Part shown: positions 7,066 to 57,944 of the stretch, piece by piece | How positions within the stretch are numbered: position 1 is the stretch's first letter | Layout of the letters: every line of letters begins with the position of its first letter | NCBI GenBank assembly: GCA_016219285.1 | Contig: JACRNJ010000032.1 | Span: 21,721 to 85,720 of the forward strand | Reading direction: 5' to 3' | From: Deltaproteobacteria bacterium | Lineage (GTDB): Bacteria > Desulfobacterota > GWC2-55-46 > UBA9637 | DNA: 64,000 nucleotides | Notes under the pieces: generated by a model | Databases searched by the model: none | What the model was told of the DNA's origin: nothing | Seen by the model: only the letters and a program-made list of their open reading frames with translations | Made by a program: the position numbers and the translations under genes

Positions 7066-7128
7066 GCAGGGTGGGCTGTGCCCACCGCAAACATTGTCCT
7101 TTGTAATGGTGGGCAAAGCCCACCCTGC
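7066..7128. repeat. REPIN-like palindromic doublet (gggtgggcNNtgcccacc x2, inverted), copy 1 of 3
   Basis: gcagggtgggctgtgcccaccgcaaacattgtcctttgtaatggtgggcaaagcccaccctgc. Each half is itself a palindrome. Near-identical copies lie at 23151-23212 and 49400-49463. Confidence 0.85.
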
Positions 7129-7696: not shown

Positions 7697-8674
7697 ATGA
7701 AGATTAAGATTAAAATTTCACGCTGCGACCCTATGGGTAAAGGCTGGTGCGAGCCGTTTCTCCAAGCCTATGACATAGAGGTAAAAGAGGGTATGACTAT
7801 CCTTGATGCCATTCATCTTGTGAAGGATGTGCAGGATGGGACGTTGGCATTCAGACGGTCTTGCCGGAGCGCTATCTGCGGTTCCTGTGCTGTGAACATA
7901 AATGGTTTTCCAAAACTTGCTTGTAAGACACAGCTTATTACCGAATACAGGAAAAAAGAGTCAATGGTCATTGAACCCCTTTCAAACCACAGGGTGATAA
8001 AAGACCTTGTTGTTGATTTTAATCCATTCTGGGATAAGATAAATAAAGTGGAACCGTGGTTGAATCGTAAGTCGGCTATCAGCCATCAGCCATCAGCTGT
8101 CAGCAAAAAAGATGTTTTGAAGATAGATAATTCCAGCAAATGTATTATGTGCGGATGCTGTAATGGAGCCTGTAATACATTAGAGATTGATAAACATTTT
8201 ATTGCCCCGGCTGCTTTGGCAAAGGCATGGAGGTTTGTGGGTGATGTAAGGGAAGGGGAGAAGAAGAAAAGACTGGAAAAGCTCAGCGAGGCGCATGGTA
8301 TGTGGGATTGCGTAAGATGCGTAAACTGCACTCAGTATTGCCCAAAAGACGTAGCGCCACTTCAGGCAATAGAAAGATTAAGGGCAGAGGCAATAAATCA
8401 AGGAGTTATAGATAATCATGGCGCAAAACATGTAAAATCAATGGTTGATTCCGTGAAGAGGGTGGGCAGACTGGATGAGGCCGCAATGACTTTCAAGACG
8501 CTTGGTTTTTTGCGCTCTTTAGGCATGATACCCTTTGGGTTGAAAATGGAAATGCACGGAAAAATGCCTATGCCGCTCATATTTCCGCAGATTGAAAAAA
8601 TTGAAGAGGTGAAGAAAATATATGAGGAGATAGAGAAGAGAAAGGAGCAGGTTGAGGTTAAGGTAGAGAAGTAA
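7697..8674 (+). CDS. succinate dehydrogenase/fumarate reductase-type iron-sulfur subunit (FrdB/SdhB-like) with C-terminal extension
   Basis: 2Fe-2S ferredoxin motif CRSAICGSCAVNING plus two 4Fe-4S motifs CIMCGCCNGACN and CVRCVNCTQYCP. An in-frame simple-sequence insert lies at 8077-8104. A C-terminal extension of about 80 aa is present. Confidence 0.75.
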   Translation: MKIKIKISRCDPMGKGWCEPFLQAYDIEVKEGMTILDAIHLVKDVQDGTLAFRRSCRSAICGSCAVNINGFPKLACKTQLITEYRKKESMVIEPLSNHRVIKDLVVDFNPFWDKINKVEPWLNRKSAISHQPSAVSKKDVLKIDNSSKCIMCGCCNGACNTLEIDKHFIAPAALAKAWRFVGDVREGEKKKRLEKLSEAHGMWDCVRCVNCTQYCPKDVAPLQAIERLRAEAINQGVIDNHGAKHVKSMVDSVKRVGRLDEAAMTFKTLGFLRSLGMIPFGLKMEMHGKMPMPLIFPQIEKIEEVKKIYEEIEKRKEQVEVKVEK

Positions 8675-8748: not shown

Positions 8749-8836
8749 ACCCCACCCTCACCTTAATCCTCTCCCTGAGGGAGAGGAGACTTTTTTGTTC
8801 CCTCCCATTCAAGGGGAGGGTTAGGGTGGGGATGGG
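8749..8836. repeat. about 88 bp structured palindromic element (copy A), inverted partner at 9879-9963
   Basis: accccaccctcacc...ctccctgagggagagg...ccctcccattcaaggggaggg...gggtggggatggg. The ends are self-complementary and there are two internal mini-hairpins. Confidence 0.8.
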
Positions 8837-10679: not shown

Positions 10680-10800
10680 GTATAATGCCAAATGTCAAAA
10701 TCCAAATTACAAATAAATTTCAAATGATAAATCTCAAATGACAAATTTAACGTTTGAATTTTGAAATTTGGGTTTTATTTGACATTTGGATTTTGATATT
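10680..10800. repeat. intergenic heptamer-type tandem/inverted simple repeat (caaatg/caaat units)
   Basis: aaatgtcaaaatccaaattacaaataaatttcaaatgataaatctcaaatgacaaattt ... followed by its near reverse complement, giving a long imperfect palindrome. Confidence 0.8.
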
Positions 10801-10820
10801 TGGATTTGTCTATCTATATT

Positions 10821-12075: not shown

Positions 12076-12816
12076 ATGCCAAAGGTAGTAGGCGTAAGGT
12101 TTAAAAGGGCGTGCAAAATATATGATTTTGATGTCAATAATCTGGAGCTTAAAACTGGCGAACAGGTCGTTGTGGAGACACAAAAGGGGATGGGTCTGGG
12201 TTGGGTTGCGCGCAGCCCGCTTGACAAACCTGCCCCTGCAAGCAGTAAGCAGAGGGACGAGACAAACCTTGTTCAGCCGTTGAAAAAAGTAATAAGGAAG
12301 GCTACAGGTGGAGATAGGGAGCGGTTTGAATTCAACAAAGAGATGGAAGATGAAGCAGCTGCTGTATGCAGGAAAGAGATAGCCAAACACGGCCTTTCCA
12401 TGAAACTTGTAAATGTAGAATACCTTTTTGACTCAAGCAAGGTCATATTTTCATTTATTTCAGAAAACAGAGTTGATTTCAGGGATCTGGTCAAAGATAT
12501 GGCTAACGAGCTTCATACGAGAATAGAAATGCGTCAGATAGGGGTCAGGGATGAGGCTAAGATGTTAGGCGGTGTGGGCCCATGCGGAAGAATGCTCTGC
12601 TGTTCAACTCATCTTGTGGATTTTGAACCGGTAAGCGTTAAAATGGCAAAAGAGCAAAATATCTCTCTCAATCCTGCAAAGTTGTCAGGTGTTTGCGGCA
12701 GGCTTATGTGCTGTCTTTCGTATGAAGCATCGCAAGATGCCTGTGATTCAGGTTCAAATTGTTGCCATTCTCATAAGCCAGAACAAAGCCAACCATCCTC
12801 TTTACCAGGGGCATAA
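12076..12816 (+). CDS. PSP1 C-terminal domain protein (YaaT/RicT-like)
   Basis: Conserved PSP1 N-terminal region (VVGVRFKRACKIYDFD...) and a Cys-rich C-terminus (CGRMLCCSTH...CGRLMCCLSYE). Position after holB is as in Bacillus yaaT. Confidence 0.75.
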   Translation: MPKVVGVRFKRACKIYDFDVNNLELKTGEQVVVETQKGMGLGWVARSPLDKPAPASSKQRDETNLVQPLKKVIRKATGGDRERFEFNKEMEDEAAAVCRKEIAKHGLSMKLVNVEYLFDSSKVIFSFISENRVDFRDLVKDMANELHTRIEMRQIGVRDEAKMLGGVGPCGRMLCCSTHLVDFEPVSVKMAKEQNISLNPAKLSGVCGRLMCCLSYEASQDACDSGSNCCHSHKPEQSQPSSLPGA

Positions 12817-20392: not shown

Positions 20393-21523
20393 ATGATATA
20401 CTTAGACAATGCAGCCACATCATATCCAAAACCCGAATCGGTCTATCAAAGGATAGACCATATCTTGAGGCACACAGGCGGAAATCCGGGGAGGAGCGGC
20501 CACAGAATGGCCCTGGACGCAAGCCGTGTGATATTTGAGGCAAGGGAAAGCGCTGCCAGACTTTTTAACATCAAAAATGCCTCAAGGATTGTATTTACAA
20601 AGAATGCCACAGAGGCTATAAATATTGCGTTTAAGGGTATTTTAAGACAAGAAGAACATGTTGTTACGACATCCATTGAGCATAATGCGGTTGTAAAACC
20701 TCTAAAAAGACTGGAGGCGCGGGGGGTTCAAGTTACACAACTTAAGGTTGATAAAAACGGCTGGGTTGAGCCAAAGGATATTGAAAAGGCAATAAGAAAA
20801 GAGACAAAACTCATATCTGTTGTCCATGCCTCGAATGTGTTCGGCGCAATACTTCCTGTGGCAGAGATAGGCAGGATATGCAGAAAGAAAAATGTTTTAT
20901 TCATGGTTGATGCCGCTCAAACAGCAGGCGCAATGCCCATAGATATTGAGGCATTAAATGTGGATATATTCGCTGCCACAGGACACAAGAGCCTGTTTGG
21001 CCCGCAGGGCACAGGGTTATTGTATGTTAGGGAAGGGATTGAACCGTTGCCTTTTATTGACGGAGGCACAGGCGAGGATGATGAGCTGGTAGAAATCCCT
21101 GACAGGCTTGAATCAGGCACCATAAACACCCCAGGCATAGGAGGGCTTGGCGCAGGCATAGAATTTCTCTTAAAAGAGGGTGTTAAAAAGATAAGGCGGT
21201 ATGAAGAGGGGCTAATAAGGCAGATATTGGATGGTTTATCAGGCATAAAAGGCATAGAGATTATCGGGCCGCAGGATGAAAAAAAGAGAACACATCTTGT
21301 TTCGTTTAATATGCAAGGCAAAGACCCTTCGGATATCGGTTACAGACTGGATAATGAATTCGGCATTATGTTAAGATGCGGTCTTCACTGCGCCCCTTGC
21401 GCTCATAGGTCTGCCGGCACTTATCCATCAGGGGCTGTTAGGGTAAGCCCGGGATATTTTAATACGGCTGATGATATAGAGGAGTTTTTGAGGGGAGTGA
21501 GGGAGATAAGTTGCGGGTTTTAA
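20393..21523 (+). CDS. cysteine desulfurase family protein (aminotransferase class V, NifS/CsdA-like subgroup)
   Basis: PLP-dependent class V fold with a conserved lysine region (ATGHKSL) and a C-terminal Cys loop (RCGLHCAPCAH). Length 376 aa. Confidence 0.75.
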   Translation: MIYLDNAATSYPKPESVYQRIDHILRHTGGNPGRSGHRMALDASRVIFEARESAARLFNIKNASRIVFTKNATEAINIAFKGILRQEEHVVTTSIEHNAVVKPLKRLEARGVQVTQLKVDKNGWVEPKDIEKAIRKETKLISVVHASNVFGAILPVAEIGRICRKKNVLFMVDAAQTAGAMPIDIEALNVDIFAATGHKSLFGPQGTGLLYVREGIEPLPFIDGGTGEDDELVEIPDRLESGTINTPGIGGLGAGIEFLLKEGVKKIRRYEEGLIRQILDGLSGIKGIEIIGPQDEKKRTHLVSFNMQGKDPSDIGYRLDNEFGIMLRCGLHCAPCAHRSAGTYPSGAVRVSPGYFNTADDIEEFLRGVREISCGF

Positions 21524-21600
21524 GTTATTAAGATTTAAGTTGTAAGATTTAAGTCTTTTACTTACAACTTTCAACCTACAACTTGAATCTTTAATTTATT

Positions 21601-22716
21601 ATGTTAATCCTCGGTATTGAATCTTCATGCGATGATATGGCTGCTGCGGTTGTAAAAGACGGCAGGTATATCCTTTCCAATGTTGTGTCTTCTCAAGATG
21701 AGATACATAAAAAATATGGCGGTATTGTGCCTGAACTTGCGTCAAGAAGGCACCTTGAGACAGTTATACCGGTAGTAGAGGAGGCATTAAATCAGGCAAA
21801 AGTAACATTGGATGATATAGATGCCATTGGTGTCACGCAGGGTCCCGGGTTGGTTGGCTCCATACTTGTCGGTCTTTCATTTGCAAAGGCTATCTGCTAT
21901 GTAAAGGACATGTCATTTGTCGGAGTGAATCATATAACAGCGCATCCTATGGCAGTGTTTTTAGAGGCAGGGAGCAGGGAACAGGGAACAGGGAATGGAA
22001 ATGATAATATCCGACCCCCGATCCCTGATCCCCAATATCCGATTTTTCCCTTCATCGCCCTTGTTGTATCAGGCGGGCATACCACACTTTTTAAATTTAA
22101 AGACTTTGATAATTATGAAATCCTTGGCCAAACCAGAGACGACGCGGCAGGAGAGGCGTTTGACAAGGTTGCAAAACTTTTGGGGCTCGGCTATCCGGGC
22201 GGCGCTGTTATAGACAGGCTTGCAAAAAGCGGAAATGTTTCTGCAATAGAGTTTACACGGCCATATATATCAAAGGATACCCTTGATTTCAGCTTCAGCG
22301 GCATTAAGACAGCAGTTCTTAATTATCTTAAGGAAACTGAAAGTCATGGGTCAGGGGTCAGTGGTCAGGGGTCAGGGTTTAAATCGAAAATCGAAAATCG
22401 AAAATCGAAAATCAATATAAACGACCTTGCGGCCAGTTTTCAAGAGGCAATCGTTGATGTGCTGACAGACAAGGCTGTTTCGGCATGCAAGGCTAATAAC
22501 ATAGATAGCCTGGTAGTTTCCGGCGGAGTTGCCTGCAACAGCAGATTGAGAGAAAAAATGCGCATAAAATCTAAAGACAATAGCATAAAGATTTTTATCC
22601 CGGAGCCAGGACTGTGCAGCGATAACGGCGCTATGATTGCGGCGGCAGCGTATCATTTTTTAAAGAATGGAATCAGAGGCGGGCTTGATATGAATGCGAT
22701 ACCAAATATGGAATAA
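21601..22716 (+). CDS. tsaD: tRNA N6-adenosine threonylcarbamoyltransferase TsaD (Kae1/Gcp) carrying two in-frame repeat insertions
   Basis: Conserved motifs LGIESSCDD, GGIVPELASRRH, VSGGHT and GGVACN are present. There are two low-complexity inserts (EQGTGNGND..., HGSGVSGQGSGFKSKIENRKSKI), each encoded by DNA tandem repeats. Confidence 0.9.
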   Translation: MLILGIESSCDDMAAAVVKDGRYILSNVVSSQDEIHKKYGGIVPELASRRHLETVIPVVEEALNQAKVTLDDIDAIGVTQGPGLVGSILVGLSFAKAICYVKDMSFVGVNHITAHPMAVFLEAGSREQGTGNGNDNIRPPIPDPQYPIFPFIALVVSGGHTTLFKFKDFDNYEILGQTRDDAAGEAFDKVAKLLGLGYPGGAVIDRLAKSGNVSAIEFTRPYISKDTLDFSFSGIKTAVLNYLKETESHGSGVSGQGSGFKSKIENRKSKININDLAASFQEAIVDVLTDKAVSACKANNIDSLVVSGGVACNSRLREKMRIKSKDNSIKIFIPEPGLCSDNGAMIAAAAYHFLKNGIRGGLDMNAIPNME

Positions 22717-22797: not shown

Positions 22798-23763
22798 TTG
22801 CCGATGTTAAACAAACCAAAGAAAAATTCTAAAACGCCGATAAATCGGCAACTACAATCTTACGGTTTTTCTCCCTTAAAAAGATTCAGCCAAAACTTTC
22901 TCACCGATGAACGGATTGCCGGCAAGATTATTGATGCGTTTGAACTGAAAGAGGACGATACGGTAATAGAAATAGGCCCCGGTCTTGGCATGCTGACAGA
23001 GCGGCTGTTGGACACAGGGGCAAAGGTTCTGGCAATAGAGATAGATAAGGGTTTTGCAGATATTCTTGATAAAAGATTCGGCAGCAGGGATAATTTTGAA
23101 AAAATAATATGTCAAGATGCATTAAAAATTTCGTATAAAGAATTGTTTTGTAGGGTGGGCTGCGCCCACCAAAAACAGACGGATAAAAATGGCGGGCAAA
23201 GCCCGCCCTACAACGATAACAAGAAGCTTGCCCCTGCGGGCATAAAACAGTGGTTTAAGGTTATTTCCAATCTCCCTTACAACATCTCAACACCCATTAT
23301 TTTTAAACTTCTTGAGGAGCGCGAGATATTTTCAATGTTCCTGCTTATGCTGCAAAAAGAGGTGGCCGAACGGATTGTATCGCAGCCTGACACAAAAGAG
23401 TACGGTGTTTTGTCTATATTTGTTCAACTGTTTGCAGATGTAAATATAGAGTTTGATGTGCCGCCATCTTCATTTTATCCAAAACCAAATGTCTATTCTT
23501 CTGTTGTTAGGTTCACTATATTGCAGAAACCGAGAGTTGAAATATATGACATCAGCTTTTTTAAAAGAGTTGTTAAGGCGTCTTTTGGGCAGAGGAGGAA
23601 AACCCTGCTAAATGCCTTAAAGGTTTTAAAACTGACAACCCAGGAGATTAGAAATGCCTTAGAGCAATCTGGTATAGAGCCGCAGGCAAGGGGGGAGACC
23701 CTTAGCCTTAAAGAATTTGGAATATTAAGCAATAACTTGAAGAAAATAGCAGAACATATTTAA
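22798..23763 (+). CDS. rsmA: 16S rRNA (adenine1518/1519-N6)-dimethyltransferase KsgA/RsmA with in-frame REPIN-derived insert
   Basis: Conserved motifs FSQNFL, IEIGPGLGMLT and NLPYNIST are present. A half-MITE (22832-22860) encodes part of the N-terminus. The full REPIN-like doublet at 23151-23212 is translated in frame as CRVGCAHQKQTDKNGGQSPPYN. Confidence 0.85.
   Translation: MPMLNKPKKNSKTPINRQLQSYGFSPLKRFSQNFLTDERIAGKIIDAFELKEDDTVIEIGPGLGMLTERLLDTGAKVLAIEIDKGFADILDKRFGSRDNFEKIICQDALKISYKELFCRVGCAHQKQTDKNGGQSPPYNDNKKLAPAGIKQWFKVISNLPYNISTPIIFKLLEEREIFSMFLLMLQKEVAERIVSQPDTKEYGVLSIFVQLFADVNIEFDVPPSSFYPKPNVYSSVVRFTILQKPRVEIYDISFFKRVVKASFGQRRKTLLNALKVLKLTTQEIRNALEQSGIEPQARGETLSLKEFGILSNNLKKIAEHI
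23151..23212. repeat. REPIN-like palindromic doublet, copy 2 of 3, located inside the rsmA coding sequence
   Basis: tagggtgggctgcgcccaccaaaaacagacggataaaaatggcgggcaaagcccgccctaca. Confidence 0.85.
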
Positions 23764-24899: not shown

Positions 24900-25014
24900 T
24901 CTGCCGATTTATCGGCGATTGTAACTCAAACCTTCAGATTTGAGTTTTTCAAGGCTAAAGCCTTGAGTTACAAAATGCGCCCATAAATGGGCAGGCTGCA
25001 AAAATATTAACTAC
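24896..25014. mobile_element. MITE-like element, inverted orientation with nested internal hairpin insert
   Basis: gtagtctgccgatttatcggcg...(gtaactcaaa...ttgagttac insert)...cgcccataaatgggcag...aactac. Confidence 0.8.
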
Positions 25015-32101: not shown

Positions 32102-32723
32102 GTAGGTTGGGTTGAGCAAAGCGAAACCCAACAATTCATTCATACCCTACATCCTCATCAAATTGAATCTCACAACCTGCCCCCCAATCGCTCTTGTAAA
32201 TGCCCTGTTTAACATAACGATGAAAACTTGAATATGCCCAGTCGCGTGGCAATGTTACCAGACTATGTTTAACAGGATTGTAATGGATGTAATTACAATG
32301 CGCCTCAAAATCTTTCTCGTCTCTAATCTGATGCTCCCAAAACCGCCTCTGCCAAACCGCTTGTTCTCCCTTACTTAATTTTGAGGCAGATCTAAAGCCT
32401 TTATATCCATCCTGACATTGTCTGCTAAAATAGCTTTTTATAAGCCCCCATCGCAGAGAAAAATCATTATCGTTGTGCGGCAATGTCCAGATACAGTGAA
32501 TATGATCGGGCAGCAAAACAAATGCGTCAATCCGAAAGGTGTGTCTGTTGATAACATACTGAAACGCTTCTTTTATCAACCGTATGTTTGCTTCATGGCA
32601 TAAAATCCTTTTCCTCCCGTGCGTTACCACCGTAAAGAAAAATGCCGCCCCTTTTGCCTTTGACCTGCGATAACGCATTGCTTTTTATGATTATGTTGGG
32701 TTTCGTTCCTCAACCCAACCTAC
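32102..32723. mobile_element. RAYT (REP-associated tyrosine transposase) unit bounded by hairpin inverted repeats
   Basis: Left end is gtaggttgggttgagcaaagcgaaacccaaca. Right end is tgttgggtttcgttcctcaacccaacctac, its inverse, and each end is an 8-bp-stem hairpin. The unit encloses one transposase gene. Confidence 0.8.
32136..32678 (-). CDS. REP-associated tyrosine transposase (IS200/IS605 TnpA-like, Y1 HUH family)
   Basis: HuH motif LPDHIHCIW and catalytic Tyr region NYIHYNPVKH. Length 180 aa, which is longer than IS200 TnpA and typical of RAYTs. Confidence 0.8.
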   Translation of the reverse strand: MRYRRSKAKGAAFFFTVVTHGRKRILCHEANIRLIKEAFQYVINRHTFRIDAFVLLPDHIHCIWTLPHNDNDFSLRWGLIKSYFSRQCQDGYKGFRSASKLSKGEQAVWQRRFWEHQIRDEKDFEAHCNYIHYNPVKHSLVTLPRDWAYSSFHRYVKQGIYKSDWGAGCEIQFDEDVGYE

Positions 32724-32898
32724 CAACTTCAGTAAGGGTTATGACAGAAGAAAAAGCGCTCAATCTCTCTGACTGAAAAGAATCAACCACTTCTTTGGCA
32801 ATTGATCCAAACTGAGGATTAGCTTCGATGTAATAAATGATGGGCGCTGTATCTATGAAAATAGTATTTATTTGATCAAGTTCATCCGAGAGGGTCAT
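32710..32898 (-). pseudogene. vapC: N-terminal half of PIN-domain (VapC) toxin gene truncated at the RAYT element boundary
   Basis: IFIDTAPIIYYIE has the first PIN Asp and ITLTEV has the second acidic residue. The ORF ends inside the right inverted repeat of the RAYT unit. Confidence 0.5.
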
Positions 32899-33119: not shown

Positions 33120-33577
33120 TTTAACCCCCTTTCTTTAATTTATTATCATTCTCCAAGGTAAACAAATATGTCTGTATTATAATATCAACACAAAAGTTTT
33201 GCTATATTATTAAAGCGCCCCAAAAATAGATATTGATTTTTTGAGAAACCTGCAAGTCCTTGACAGACGTTTCACCTGTCAAGGGCAAGTTGGCTGTTAG
33301 ACAACACACCCCTAAATCCCCTCTCGAGAGGGGACTAAAGGGGCGTGTTATTTACAACGAGCCCTCCCCCTTTATCCCCCTCATGGAGGGGGACAGGGGG
33401 AGGATACGGTGAGGAGCAAAGATGTGCCGATAACGAAGTATGGCAGGCAAATCGCAGGTTTGTAAAATAGCGAGGTTTTTAATCGCTATTTTACGGAAGT
33501 GCTTAATGGTGTCTGACGTGTTCATAGGCGAATAATTCGCTTTTTTATTTGGGAACAGTCTCCTTGGAAGTCTTTTC

Positions 33578-39672: not shown

Positions 39673-40119
39673 ATGAGGTTATCTACCAAAGGGCAATATG
39701 CAGTAAGGGCGATGGTCAGCCTTGTTTGCCATGAAAATGGAGGGCCTATTACACTGAAAGATATATCTGAGAGCGAGGGTATATCACTGGCTTATCTTGA
39801 GCAGCTGTTTGTTAAGCTCAGGAAGGGCAATATTGTAAAGAGTGTAAGGGGGCCTGGCGGCGGATATGTGTTGGCGAGGCCGGCAAGCGAGATAAAAGTT
39901 GGAGAGGTTATAACCGTGGTAGAAGAGTCTTTAAACCCGGTTGCATGTCTTGATGGTGACATTTCCATGTGCACAAGGACAAATAAGTGCGTAACCCAAC
40001 GTGTTTGGAAAGGGCTGGGCGATAAGATGAAGGAGTTCTTGGATTCAATAACAATAGAAGATTTAAGCCGAGAGGCAAATGAGTTAAAGAGTGCTGGAGT
40101 TAAGGAGTTTAGGAGTTAA
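39673..40119 (+). CDS. iscR: Rrf2-family Fe-S cluster regulator IscR
   Basis: Rrf2 helix-turn-helix (LSTKGQYAVRAMVSL) and three Cys ligands (C...C....C) at IscR spacing. Sits upstream of iscS-iscU. Confidence 0.85.
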   Translation: MRLSTKGQYAVRAMVSLVCHENGGPITLKDISESEGISLAYLEQLFVKLRKGNIVKSVRGPGGGYVLARPASEIKVGEVITVVEESLNPVACLDGDISMCTRTNKCVTQRVWKGLGDKMKEFLDSITIEDLSREANELKSAGVKEFRS

Positions 40120-40164
40120 CTCCTAAACTCCTTAACTCTCAACTTAAAAAATAAGGAGGTTGTT

Positions 40165-49399: not shown

Positions 49400-49463
49400 G
49401 TAGGGTGGGCTATGCCCACCTTTTTGATTGTGCCGCAATTTTGGTGGGCATAGCCCACCCTAC
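49400..49463. repeat. REPIN-like palindromic doublet, copy 3 of 3, interrupting a small ORF
   Basis: gtagggtgggctatgcccacctttttgattgtgccgcaattttggtgggcatagcccaccctac. The minus-strand ORF 49375-49566 reads through it and is then frameshifted. Confidence 0.85.
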
Positions 49464-54513: not shown

Positions 54514-54586
54514 AAAAAAATTGTAGATTTACGAATTACGAATTACGATTTAAAATCTAAAATCATAAATCTAAAATAGTAAATCC
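54514..54586. repeat. intergenic tandem simple repeat (attacga / aaatcta units)
   Basis: gtagatttacgaattacgaattacgatttaaaatctaaaatcataaatctaaaatagtaaatc. Confidence 0.8.
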
Positions 54587-55246: not shown

Positions 55247-56067
55247 TAAAATTCTCCCGGCAGAAGAAAACCGTATTTTTTCATGATTGGCCTGCCTATA
55301 GGGCTGGTTACATAGTGTATAAATTCCCTTGCCTCTTTTTCAGCCTTTGTCTTTTTTATCACAGCCGCCGCCTGATTGATAGGGTTATGAAGGATATTAT
55401 CAATAGGTGTATAGGTTATTTCAGGCACATTGGCAACCGATAATGCAATAATGCCAACAGGCACATCTCCTGTCTGGAGATACTGCAATGCCTGTCTTAT
55501 AATTTCGCCATAAACAAGTTTGGGTTTAAGTTTATCCCATAATTCAAGTTTTAGCAGTGCCTCTTTTGCGGCAATGCCATAAGGCGCATGGTCTGGATTG
55601 GCAATAGAAATCTTTTTAATAGACGGGTCAAGGAGGTCTTCAAGTTTTTTTGCGTTTATCCCATATGTTTTATTCGCAGCCAGAACGATCCTGCCCTGGG
55701 CATACAGTTTTTGTGTATCTGGAATAATGAGCCCGCCGTTTTTTAATTCATCAATATATTTTTCGTTGGCAGCAAAAAAAATATCAAATGGGGCGCCGTT
55801 TTCTATTTGCCTGGCAAGCATGCCTGTGGAACCGAATGACAGTACAACCCTCGTGCCGGTATTTATCTCAAATTGTTTGGCTATTTCCTTTAATGCAAAA
55901 GAAAGGTCGCTGGCGGCGGCAATAGTGAGAGATTTTTGTTCCGCAAAAATAGCAGCAGGCAGTAGGCAGTAGGCAGTAAGCAGTAACAGGATTTTAGATT
56001 TTAGATTTACGATTTTAGATTTATGATTTTTTAATTCGTAATTCGTAATTCGTAATTCGTAAATCAT
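55246..56067 (-). CDS. modA: molybdate-binding periplasmic protein ModA; N-terminus and start codon encoded by an intergenic-type tandem repeat
   Basis: Mature part LTIAAASDLSFALKEIAKQFE...GTRVVLSFGSTGMLARQIENGAPFDIFFAA is the ModA fold. The only in-frame canonical start is the ATG at 56067, inside the repeat atgatttacgaattacgaattacg. Confidence 0.8.
   Translation of the reverse strand: MIYELRITNYELKNHKSKIVNLKSKILLLLTAYCLLPAAIFAEQKSLTIAAASDLSFALKEIAKQFEINTGTRVVLSFGSTGMLARQIENGAPFDIFFAANEKYIDELKNGGLIIPDTQKLYAQGRIVLAANKTYGINAKKLEDLLDPSIKKISIANPDHAPYGIAAKEALLKLELWDKLKPKLVYGEIIRQALQYLQTGDVPVGIIALSVANVPEITYTPIDNILHNPINQAAAVIKKTKAEKEAREFIHYVTSPIGRPIMKKYGFLLPGEF
55985..56066. repeat. tandem simple repeat (gattttagat and aattcgt units) spanning the gpsA-modA junction
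   Basis: gattttagattttagatttacgattttagatttatgattttttaattcgtaattcgtaattcgtaattcgtaaatcat. Confidence 0.85.
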
Positions 56068-57068: not shown

Positions 57069-57944
57069 TCAATTCTCCTTAAGCGCCATCGGCGTATTCT
57101 TTTTCTCTCTTGCCTCTATTGCATCTAATCTTATCTTTATGACACCAGGGTTGGGATAGCTTTTTTCCAATGCCTTATAAAGCCCTATTGCCTCTGCAAG
57201 GTTTCCTGTTTCTTCAATGCAGACGGCCTTGCCGAGTTGCGCCTCATAAGCGTATTGGCTGTTTGGATATGATGAAAATACCAGTTCGTATGCCTTTATA
57301 GCCTCTTTGTAATTACCCTCCATGTAATAGGTGTTTGCCATCTCATAATAAACATTAGGGCCAAGCTCAGAAGACGGAGAGTTTTTGATAATTTCCTGAA
57401 GTTCAATCCTTGCCTGTTTGATGTCAGTGAGTTTAAGATATGCCATTGCTATCTGATATTGAAAATTGTCGCTCAGGGCCCCGCCTGTATTTTTTATAAG
57501 CCATTGATATTCCCCTATTGCCTTTCTATAATTGCCACTTTTAACATATATCTCCGCTATATCCTGCCTTGCCAGTACTATTTCTTTGCTGTTTGGATAC
57601 AACAGCATCAATGTCGCATATGCATTCATGGCCTTTTTAACATCCTTTAGATAAAGGTTATAGATAAGGCCAATCTTATACTGGCTTGCAGAGGCATACT
57701 GGCTTTCCGGATATTTGGTTACAATATTACTGTACCTCGCAATAGCCTTTACATATGCGCGTTGGCCGAAAAGTTCTTCTGCCTTTTCATAAGCAGGAAG
57801 GGTGTGGTCCTGGGAGCAGGATAAAAGAAAAATACATATTGCAAGTTGTAAAATGCAAAGGGGAAAATGCAAATTTAAAGGAAAAGACTTTAAGTTTTGT
57901 AATTTACAATTTACAATTTGCAATTTGCAATTTGCATTTTGCAT
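57069..57944 (-). CDS. TPR-repeat lipoprotein (BamD/YbgF-like)
   Basis: Lipobox LLSCSQ and multiple TPRs (AYEKAEELFGQRAYVKAIARY...). The N-terminal 17 aa are encoded by a tgcaaat tandem repeat, and an internal TTG is a plausible alternative start. Confidence 0.5.
   Translation of the reverse strand: MQNANCKLQIVNCKLQNLKSFPLNLHFPLCILQLAICIFLLSCSQDHTLPAYEKAEELFGQRAYVKAIARYSNIVTKYPESQYASASQYKIGLIYNLYLKDVKKAMNAYATLMLLYPNSKEIVLARQDIAEIYVKSGNYRKAIGEYQWLIKNTGGALSDNFQYQIAMAYLKLTDIKQARIELQEIIKNSPSSELGPNVYYEMANTYYMEGNYKEAIKAYELVFSSYPNSQYAYEAQLGKAVCIEETGNLAEAIGLYKALEKSYPNPGVIKIRLDAIEAREKKNTPMALKEN

Follow-up and report, generated by a model that had tools for sequence, protein, structure and literature searches.

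Hypervariable heptanucleotide-repeat inserts in two loops of TsaD from an uncultured groundwater bacterium

The tsaD gene and its four heptamer arrays

We analysed a stretch of 64,000 nucleotides (the window) from contig JACRNJ010000032.1 of a Deltaproteobacteria bacterium, a metagenome-assembled genome (MAG), and describe here an intact tsaD gene that carries two in-frame inserts made of 7-nt tandem repeats. The encoded protein is identical to NCBI MBI5327638.1, filed under a 'Deltaproteobacteria bacterium' MAG, and the host is an uncultured groundwater bacterium. The 371-aa open reading frame (ORF) matches the profile TIGR03723 with an E-value of 9.7e-122 and 406 bits (cutoff 296.1), residues 3-354 aligning with profile positions 1-313 of 314. 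Judged by its sequence, the product is a bona fide TsaD, the tRNA threonylcarbamoyltransferase that makes N6-threonylcarbamoyladenosine at position 37 (t6A37), of the Kae1/TsaD/Qri7 family. Because the profile is matched end to end in a protein of 371 aa, the window TsaD is about 39 residues longer than the family. Its motif residues H111/H115, S157-T161 (SGGHT), G308-N313 (GGVACN) and D341 (CSDNGAMIA) are invariant in the alignment of relatives (A1), and the H-H-D metal-binding and GGH/GGV nucleotide-binding residues, by which TsaD is defined (PMC11648230, PMC13276492), align with those of Thermotoga maritima and Aquifex TsaD. An AlphaFold (AF2) model, built on 41 relatives and with a mean predicted local distance difference test score (pLDDT) of 71.9, has the two-subdomain ASKHA fold and matches 8ifx, 4ydu and 6n9a at E-values of ~1e-29 to 1e-30, with target-normalised template modelling (TM) scores of 0.80-0.82. 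The gene order cysteine desulfurase - tsaD - rsmA - cutA is common to the window and its relatives. The tsaD core is under purifying selection: the ratio of nonsynonymous to synonymous divergence (dN/dS) is 0.03-0.14 in all comparisons but one, the sole exception (0.50) being the near-identical pair L087/L088, whose synonymous divergence (dS) is 0.03.

Tandem Repeats Finder places four period-7 arrays within tsaD, distributed over two inserts of ~21-25 residues each (sites 1 and 2; Table 1). Each consists of at least three head-to-tail copies of a 7-nt unit (3.3-5.0 units), as in heptameric simple-sequence repeats (SSRs) of the short tandemly repeated repetitive (STRR) type, and the 14-mer unit dimers occur 9, 5 and 3 times in the window against 0.98, 0.20 and 0.50 expected. 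An earlier note on this DNA had reported two in-frame simple-sequence repeats in tsaD; the ORF is indeed uninterrupted, the translations then given (EQGTGNGNDNIRPPIPDPQYP; GSGVSGQGSGFKSKIENRKSKI) are correct, and there is no frameshift within the repeats of the window copy. The 8-mer unit 'aatcgaaa' that it had described is really the heptamer aatcgaa, all four arrays having period 7. Since the unit of 7 nt is not a multiple of 3, the arrays are read in all three frames and give peptides with a period of seven residues, GSGVSGQ running on into GSG and KSKIENR into KSKI. All of the tsaD arrays are free of stop codons in all three frames.

The four arrays have different affinities. The GTCAGGG array of site 2 is homologous to the left arm of a cassette found in relatives that we call type A (catgggtcaagggtcagg...; L082/L086/L090). 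The AAATCGA array next to it was found in the window genome only, among the sampled relatives; it is perfect and thus presumably young. The G-rich arrays contain putative G-quadruplex (G4) sequences. In the CAGGGAA array of site 1 the sense strand reads G3N4G3N4G3N4G3, with 4-nt loops, and positions 22348-22377 of site 2 hold four tracts of three or more G with loops of up to 10 nt. Motifs with loops of at most 7 nt number four in the window, where shuffled sequence would give 0.2, and all four lie on the plus strand.

Both inserts fall in loops of the enzyme. Site 1 is the linker that leads from the HxxxH metal-ligand helix to the C-terminal subdomain, at its first strand, where residues 124-148 stand in place of three residues of Aquifex TsaD (8iey). 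At site 2, residues 247-268 are added between residues 223 and 224 of both Aquifex (8iey) and T. maritima TsaD. Structure alignment thus agrees with the earlier placement of repeat 1 between the HxxxH site and VSGGHT and of repeat 2 in a loop upstream of GGVACN, and also with the claim that E. coli TsaD lacks about 20 residues at each position: relative to 4ydu_A, the numbering is offset by 21 after site 1 (query 141 = chain 120) and by 41 after site 2 (query 366 = chain 325). In the T. maritima TsaB2D-tRNA structure solved by cryo-electron microscopy (2026), helix alpha7 comprises A210-E223 and lies along the tRNA D-stem, which is contacted by the first turn of the helix, F207SFSGLK213 (PMC13276492). 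With alpha7 ending at E223, the insertion between residues 223 and 224 starts on the side of that helix opposite to the contacting turn, in the loop between alpha7 and alpha8.

Comparison with orthologues and structures had been proposed as a check. In 70 TsaDs from unrelated phyla, all without the inserts, loop length is near fixed at site 1 and moderately variable at site 2: the HxxxH-to-SGGHT spacing has a median of 20 (range 19-23) against 41 in the window, and the FSFSGxKT-to-FQE spacing a median of 24 (range 20-39) against 42. The two longest low-confidence segments of the model are residues 124-143 and 250-268 (pLDDT <50), and both inserts are predicted to be disordered. In both, the frame is kept at structurally permissive surface positions, as in the Rickettsia palindromic elements (RPEs) discussed below.

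Table 1. Coordinates of tsaD, its repeat arrays and other repeat features (window positions unless a contig is named)
Feature	Position	Strand	Remarks
tsaD coding sequence, intact	21601..22716	+	371 aa, uninterrupted; catalytic motifs in frame on both sides of the inserts
Site-1 insert	21970..22044	+	residues ~124-148
CAGGGAA x4.0, G-rich left arm of site 1	21968..21995	+	95% matches
Spacer and start of right arm, site 1, gaaatgataatatccgacccccga	21998..22021	+	24 nt identical in the L087 and L088 site-1 allele
CCGATCC-like x3.3, C-rich right arm of site 1	22011..22033	+	81% matches; 5/7 complementary to left unit
Site-2 insert	22339..22413	+	residues ~247-271
GTCAGGG x5.0, site 2	22343..22377	+	89% matches
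AAATCGA x4.7, site 2	22381..22413	+	100% perfect; translated KSKIENRKSKI
G-quadruplex motifs	2284-2310, 8813-8831, 12186-12205, 21970-21993	+	last is tsaD site 1
Split tsaD and intact counterparts	L211:1501-2657; L212:1501-2664, L213:1356-2519		one-unit loss at site 2 in L211
Inverted heptamer pair (GTTTTAA-like / ACTTACA-like) in the 77-nt desulfurase-tsaD spacer (21524-21600)	21517..21591	.	fold z -3.8
Inverted pairs of intergenic heptamer arrays	10688-10803, 21530-21591, 40097-40138, 54520-54577, 56004-56065, 57847-57943
GQGARGKGQG loci	L128, L137, L126, L112, L123, L129		contigs of 41-50% GC, lineages other than the window's
rsmA ORF	22798-23763	+
REPIN-like insert in rsmA	23148-23213		~29 aa, in frame
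Intergenic copies of the same REPIN family	49400-49463, 7066-7128		arms of the first 100% complementary
Y1 transposase ORF	32139-32678	-	180 aa, IS200-like; PF01797 E 1e-7, above cutoff
Hairpins flanking the Y1 transposase	32102-32132, 32697-32725		inverted, GTAG-headed
CCCC…GGGG palindromic element	33317-33393		TCCCCTCTCGAGAGGGGACTAAAGGGG / CCCCTTTATCCCCCTCATGGAGGGGGA

Cassette turnover and architecture among relatives

About 45 database relatives at 64-80% identity have TsaD lengths of 328-387 aa, and all of this variation is confined to the same two sites, at which about 40 of the relatives have inserts. At least 10 unrelated insert families occupy site 1 and about 8 occupy site 2; the insert peptides are unrelated between alleles and have no amino-acid conservation. 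Differing cassettes, or none, sit on near-identical cores (99.0% identity for P0013/P0036, 98.7% for P0008/P0019 and 97.5% for P0040/P0006), and P0040 (335 aa), P0027, P0028 and P0031 are close relatives that are nearly free of inserts. At the DNA level, cassettes differ at core dS values of 0.029-0.10: L089 and L090 have different site-2 cassettes at a core dS of 0.029, and L084 and L087 different site-1 cassettes at 0.095. An outgroup panel of relatives with 43-50% identity came from a contig scan dominated by the universally conserved EAFDKVAK pattern. A distant TsaD from Omnitrophota (47% identical) has a heptamer array at site 2 (L064:3687-3718, AACTCTG/AACTCCG, NSELRTLNSEL), which suggests independent use of the same permissive loop. 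This array is that protein's own; the segments of the window tsaD do not recur in unrelated taxa, which the earlier note had named as a ground for refutation.

Within a cassette, the units of an array change in concert, and in L082 the right arms of site 1 and site 2 are identical. Length differences of 7 aa, that is 3 units, separate P0018 from P0035 and P0014 from P0038, and between P0007 and P0033 the centre of the hairpin has been lost. One slippage event was caught directly. In L211 (ERZ27254846), a case drawn from 90% clusters, tsaD is present as two ORFs of 264 aa and 132 aa, and over 1160 nt the locus differs from L212 and L213 by one single-nucleotide polymorphism (SNP) and by the deletion of one TGCAGAA unit from (TGCAGAA)x3 at site 2. 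The array itself supplies the ATG start of the second ORF, which overlaps the first by 37 nt. Loss of a single unit by slippage thus takes place in natural populations, or is at least represented in samples from them, and it disrupts the frame; that the other tsaD alleles are in frame is a product of selection. Hence the earlier statement that the inserts arrived 'without breaking the frame' is true of the window copy and, taken more widely, describes survivorship. The repeat-length comparison that the earlier note had proposed as a sign of slippage is likewise borne out among relatives, where copy number is polymorphic in unit steps (L211; P0018/P0035; P0014/P0038). Short cluster fragments that begin or end at the two sites (P0134/P0156, P0123) also occur.

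The site-1 cassette of the window has a longer history. It is homologous to that of L087 and L088, with the same 27 codons and 78-81% identity, despite a dS of ~1 between the tsaD genes (78% nucleotide identity overall). This homology marks the insert as old and inherited, so that site 1 is not a case of recent colonisation.

Most cassettes of relatives share one build: a G-rich heptamer array, then a short spacer, then a C-rich array, also of heptamers. The unit of the second array complements that of the first at 5-6 of 7 positions, and as single strands these cassettes form long, regularly bulged hairpins. Folding z-scores reach -5.6 (site 1 of L081), -5.1 (site 1 of L083), -4.5 (site 1 of L086) and -4.0 (site 2 of L082), against -2.45 for window site 1, a weak hairpin, and -0.5 for window site 2, a value on which we reject a hairpin there. 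When arms were swapped between cassettes, those of types A and B paired specifically with their own partner, and pairing in type C was largely compositional. Window site 1 is a decayed type-C cassette. The GTCAGGG arm of window site 2 would pair at -38 kcal/mol with the type-A right arm CTTGCCC as compared with -9.6 with its own partner; from its sequence it looks like an orphaned type-A arm, with AAATCGA in the place of CTTGCCC. The mismatches between arms are a separate matter. Were the left arm perfectly complemented, a TGA would arise in 9 of 11 alleles, and stop avoidance was considered as their cause and rejected: stop-free perfect GGGGCAA/TTGCCCC hairpins occur in other organisms, so the mismatch is not forced, and we treat stop avoidance as a filter and not as an explanation.

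Small palindromes form a further group of cassettes. Those of the PLNPPLLKGDTGG type occupy tsaD site 1 of P0023, P0029 and P0042, and another is akin to an intergenic inverted repeat of the window (24919-24973). The CCCC…GGGG palindromic element of the window (Table 1) is of the kind that gives PLNPPLLKGDTGG when translated.

Heptamer repeats and hairpin elements beyond tsaD

Heptamer periodicity is in marked excess in the window, in which Tandem Repeats Finder returned about 27 period-7 rows. A strict autocorrelation scan found 6 arrays with a period of 7; periods 5, 6, 8, 9, 10 and 11 gave none. In clade loci the density of period-7 arrays is 0.36/kb against 0.04/kb in 80 distant genomes, a 9-fold difference. 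Nearly all of the other window arrays fall between genes, in short spacers, or in extensions of ORFs at the 5' end that are spurious, the Pfam domains beginning 47-87 residues downstream, so that the excess is chiefly intergenic, as in STRR sequences. Several of the intergenic arrays form inverted pairs (Table 1). One such pair fills the spacer between the desulfurase gene and tsaD; in L081 and L084 the spacer is absent, the desulfurase gene and tsaD overlapping by 7 nt. The same junction carries other insertions in relatives, namely a GIY-YIG gene in L083 and a 23S_rRNA_IVP gene in L211-L213. Only one other heptamer array of the window lies deep within a gene: ATCAGCC x3 (8078-8097), read in frame as …SAISHQPSAVS…, belongs to the linker that joins the 2Fe-2S domain to the 4Fe-4S domain in a protein resembling SdhB/FrdB (ORF 7697-8674, plus strand). 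Scans of the window for Rfam families and for tRNAs gave no match.

In-gene heptamer arrays also occur well outside this lineage. A metagenome scan for (CTTGCCC)x3 was unspecific, with matches of GC content 0.36-0.75 from unrelated lineages. Among them, a GGGGCAA/CTTGCCC array is in frame (GQGARGKGQG) in LeuRS (editing domain), MnmA, TatD, ThyX, a CobQ-type amidotransferase and LarC; the window orthologues of MnmA and TatD, 46-51% identical to the array-bearing proteins, do not have it. The scan indicates that the in-gene phenomenon is widespread, and it does not demonstrate dispersal within the window genome. A TolB-like ORF of L168 (~2140-2260) has a GGGGTCA array and a CTTGCCC array on either side of its hydrophobic signal-peptide core (MKTGVRGQGSGIR…LLLIFFTLAPCPLPLAS) and is the only paired type-A cassette seen outside tsaD. 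A CAAGATG-type array followed by a CTTGCAA-type array is found at the start of a glycosyltransferase gene (L089:5522-5589) and, in the window, upstream of a LolA-like gene (2625-2720). A protein search with the concatenated insert peptides returned 23 word-sharing candidates, none of them scored, and has no bearing either way.

The gene downstream of tsaD, rsmA, contains an insert of a different kind (…RVGCAHQKQTDKNGGQSPPYNDNKK…), a doublet headed by GTAG (GTAGGGTGGGCTGCGCCCACC … GGCGGGCAAAGCCCGCCCTAC) that resembles a REPIN, the paired form of repetitive extragenic palindromic (REP) sequences. The same family is found between genes at two other places in the window, and RsmA proteins of relatives either lack the insert or have other short variants in the same loop. 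The window also encodes a transposase of the Y1 type, flanked by hairpins (GTAGGTTGGGTT…AACCCAAC / GTTGGGTT…AACCCAACCTAC), and this locus has the apparent architecture of a REP-associated tyrosine transposase (RAYT). Its REP sequence differs from that within rsmA.

Origin of the inserts and their significance

We consider it probable, with moderate confidence, that the inserts are tolerated, translated heptamer-SSR and hairpin DNA in permissive TsaD loops, turning over by slippage and replacement. They would be disordered loop expansions that arose from STRR-like heptanucleotide arrays, a class abundant in this lineage, and would have no specific part in TsaD catalysis. Survival would be restricted to two sites that the protein tolerates, in the linker that joins the subdomains behind the HxxxH helix and in the loop between alpha7 and alpha8, and to versions free of stop codons with a total length divisible by three. 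Replication slippage changes the number of units, as the natural one-unit deletion shows, the frame being kept only by 3-unit (21-nt, 7-aa) or compensated changes; the hairpin can be internally deleted, and whole cassettes are swapped between nearly identical gene backbones. Replacement may proceed by recombination or gene conversion with other arrays, or by exchange between strains. The sequences themselves establish the anatomy and positions of the inserts, their hypervariability, the constraint on the core and one slippage event; the inserts are expected to be translated and to be neutral or nearly so.

Several observations weigh against this explanation. Arm complementarity recurs across unrelated cassettes, which may point to selection at the nucleic-acid level or to a templated origin in place of passive tolerance. 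The persistence of the site-1 cassette, with the same length and 81% identity over a dS of ~1, exceeds what is expected of a neutral, slippage-prone sequence. The units CAGGGAA, CCGATCC and GTCAGGG are confined to tsaD within the 64 kb, where the intergenic arrays are AT-rich, so no donor for a 'colonisation' was found there. The earlier proposal that intergenic selfish DNA had colonised tsaD is therefore not fully supported and has a basis in one array at most: AAATCGA matches an intergenic (AAATCTA/AAATCGT)n array at 55990-56030, minus strand, at 12 of 14 positions, and the three G/C-rich units have no such lookalike. In the loci of relatives, 19 of 24 arrays lie within tsaD, which hints at a real hot spot, although this is no valid test of enrichment because the loci were chosen through insert-bearing tsaD genes. 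Finally, a frameshifted tsaD as the assembly consensus of one sample is unexpected for an essential gene. The L211 allele may be a deleterious or minority haplotype, it may come from a host in which tsaD is dispensable or duplicated, it may encode a functional two-piece enzyme, or it may be an artefact.

The inserts could alternatively be active small mobile elements, that is, non-autonomous hairpins moved by an enzyme such as a Y1 transposase of the IS200/RAYT type, acting on single-stranded hairpins; a preference for the two tsaD sites or for pre-existing arrays would then explain cassette replacement at very low divergence. Unrelated cassettes on 97-99% identical backbones, the same cassette type at both sites of one gene (L082, through its identical right arms), the type-A arms around the signal-peptide region in L168 and the hairpin architecture itself would all fit, as would the RAYT-like transposase of the window, another 1.4 kb from tsaD in L083, and the in-frame REPIN of the neighbouring rsmA. 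The insert junctions do not. In codon-threaded alignments inspected by eye they have no terminal inverted repeats beyond the arrays, no target-site duplication and no GTAG, and the whole loop is replaced rather than interrupted, unlike the insertion of a miniature inverted-repeat transposable element (MITE). The inserts share with the REP/REPIN and RAYT system (PMC3116915) short hairpin repeats that are dispersed intergenically, and the window has both a RAYT-like gene and doublets of REPIN type, one of them in frame in rsmA, but the inserts are tandem arrays without a GTAG-headed REP sequence. Nor do they form, within the 64-kb window, a dispersed family with a conserved peptide of the RPE kind. 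Concerted unit changes and unit-step lengths are what slippage predicts, the G/C-rich arrays have no second copy in the 64 kb, and the window site-1 allele is old and vertically inherited. We therefore regard mobility as doubtful.

A function of the DNA or RNA itself is improbable. Hairpins or sense-strand G-quadruplexes would regulate tsaD through translation pausing, mRNA stability, or replication or recombination signals, and the peptide would be a by-product. Complementary arms recur in sequence-unrelated cassettes with z-scores of -4 to -5.6; the G-rich arrays typically have four units, as in the quadruplex-forming GGGNATC heptamers (PMC4692102), and site 1 provides one of the few G4 motifs of the window. 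On the other hand, the window alleles fold weakly or, at site 2, not at all, several close relatives are entirely without inserts, no Rfam family matches the window, and the arm complementarity of type C is mostly compositional.

Quite improbable, in our judgement, is a contingency locus in which 7-nt slippage toggles tsaD between intact and frameshifted or split states and so tunes t6A and translational fidelity in the population. A 7-nt unit does shift the frame, L211 has lost exactly one unit, with 1 SNP in 1160 nt and ORFs of 264 aa and 132 aa, and the fragments P0134/P0156 and P0123 begin or end at the two sites. The arrays are short (3-5 units), the sampled alleles are nearly all in frame with strong purifying selection on the core, and the lone variant could be an artefact, a minority haplotype or an allele that is harmful to its carrier. 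In host-adapted bacteria, SSR contingency loci usually lie in genes for surface structures or restriction-modification, and their repeats are long, have units of 1-5 nt and are found near the 5' end. The tsaD inserts resemble them in having a non-triplet unit within an ORF and one natural single-unit deletion that causes a frameshift (L211), but differ in that tsaD belongs to the core translation machinery and its arrays are short and mid-gene. Loss of t6A, moreover, has been reported to be lethal in unicellular organisms (PMC11648230). The wider proposal that the arrays make tsaD a slippage-driven switch, with rapid cassette replacement as the long-term trace of switching, seems to us a long shot.

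An adaptive protein role is unlikely, and very much so: lineage-specific functional loops, such as a Lys-rich site 2 that aids tRNA binding beside alpha7, would agree with the position of site 2 next to the D-stem-binding helix, with the net positive charge of the window site-2 peptide and with the persistence of site 1 over a dS of ~1, yet the cassettes share no amino-acid conservation, are present or absent among 97%-identical proteins and are predicted to be disordered. A sequencing or assembly artefact, which a metagenome-assembled source might suggest, is also unlikely, to the point of being negligible, given an intact frame across four arrays, same-site inserts in dozens of independent assemblies (NCBI, ENA, JGI, Logan), and arrays of 23-35 nt, far below the k=141 named in relatives' contigs.

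Tolerated repeat DNA in permissive loops, the reading we favour, has partial precedents. The functionally closest analogue would be the RPEs, selfish palindromic DNA inserted into protein-coding genes without loss of the frame (Ogata et al. 2000, 2002, summarised in PMC10969869). In both cases repeat DNA, for tsaD with hairpin folding that is clear in four relatives' cassettes, lies in frame in housekeeping genes at fold-compatible positions and is translated, or here predicted to be translated, as an extra peptide segment. RPEs, however, are unique-sequence palindromes of ~100-150 bp that fall into a few dispersed families and encode a conserved peptide, whereas the tsaD inserts are 50-120 bp long, consist of 7-nt tandem arrays, have no peptide in common, show hypervariability at two fixed sites and undergo unit slippage. 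By sequence class the inserts belong with the heptameric SSRs of cyanobacteria, Xanthomonas and Beggiatoaceae, which include cyanobacterial STRR, the GGGNATC repeats of Xanthomonas and Nostoc (PMC4692102) and the TAACTGA repeats of Beggiatoaceae and cyanobacteria (PMC4679880). Those repeats are mainly intergenic and under-represented in coding regions, the intragenic cases being mostly in hypothetical proteins (PMC4692102, PMC4679880). The likeness extends to the 7-nt unit, ~3-6 units per array, a strong excess over other periods, a location mostly between co-directional genes, indels in 7-nt steps, G-rich versions with four units and quadruplex potential, and occasional arrays within ORFs in stop-free orientation. 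Unlike the known heptameric SSRs, tsaD has several units arranged as paired imperfect inverted arrays deep in a universally conserved enzyme, the cassettes turn over clade-wide, and the host, known from a 'Deltaproteobacteria' MAG, is neither a cyanobacterium nor a sulfur bacterium. We found no report of paired heptamer arrays as hypervariable cassettes within a universal enzyme in the literature searched, the coverage of which was incomplete.

Bacterial heptanucleotide repeats have been known since 1990 and are regarded as essentially intergenic; to our knowledge, their origin, spread and change are still unexplained. Within an enzyme that is universally conserved and normally essential, such arrays are strictly filtered by the reading frame and by stop codons, which also record every change. 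The natural 'experiments' of this clade, which comprise swaps at a dS of 0.03, 3-unit steps, a hairpin deletion and a one-unit frameshift, make repeat dynamics directly testable. For protein engineering, it is useful that two positions of TsaD, one of them beside the helix that binds the tRNA D-stem, tolerate 20-40 extra disordered residues, and for annotation it matters that such inserts inflate protein lengths and can split genes in MAGs. Should the L211 frameshift stem from genuine switching, it would add the core translation machinery to the places where phase variation is known, a rare occurrence, and a population with such a switch would modulate t6A, and through it the fidelity of translation, by a contingency mechanism. 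On the best reading, the tsaD inserts are fast-evolving, tolerated repeat DNA in a vital gene and not a new protein function.

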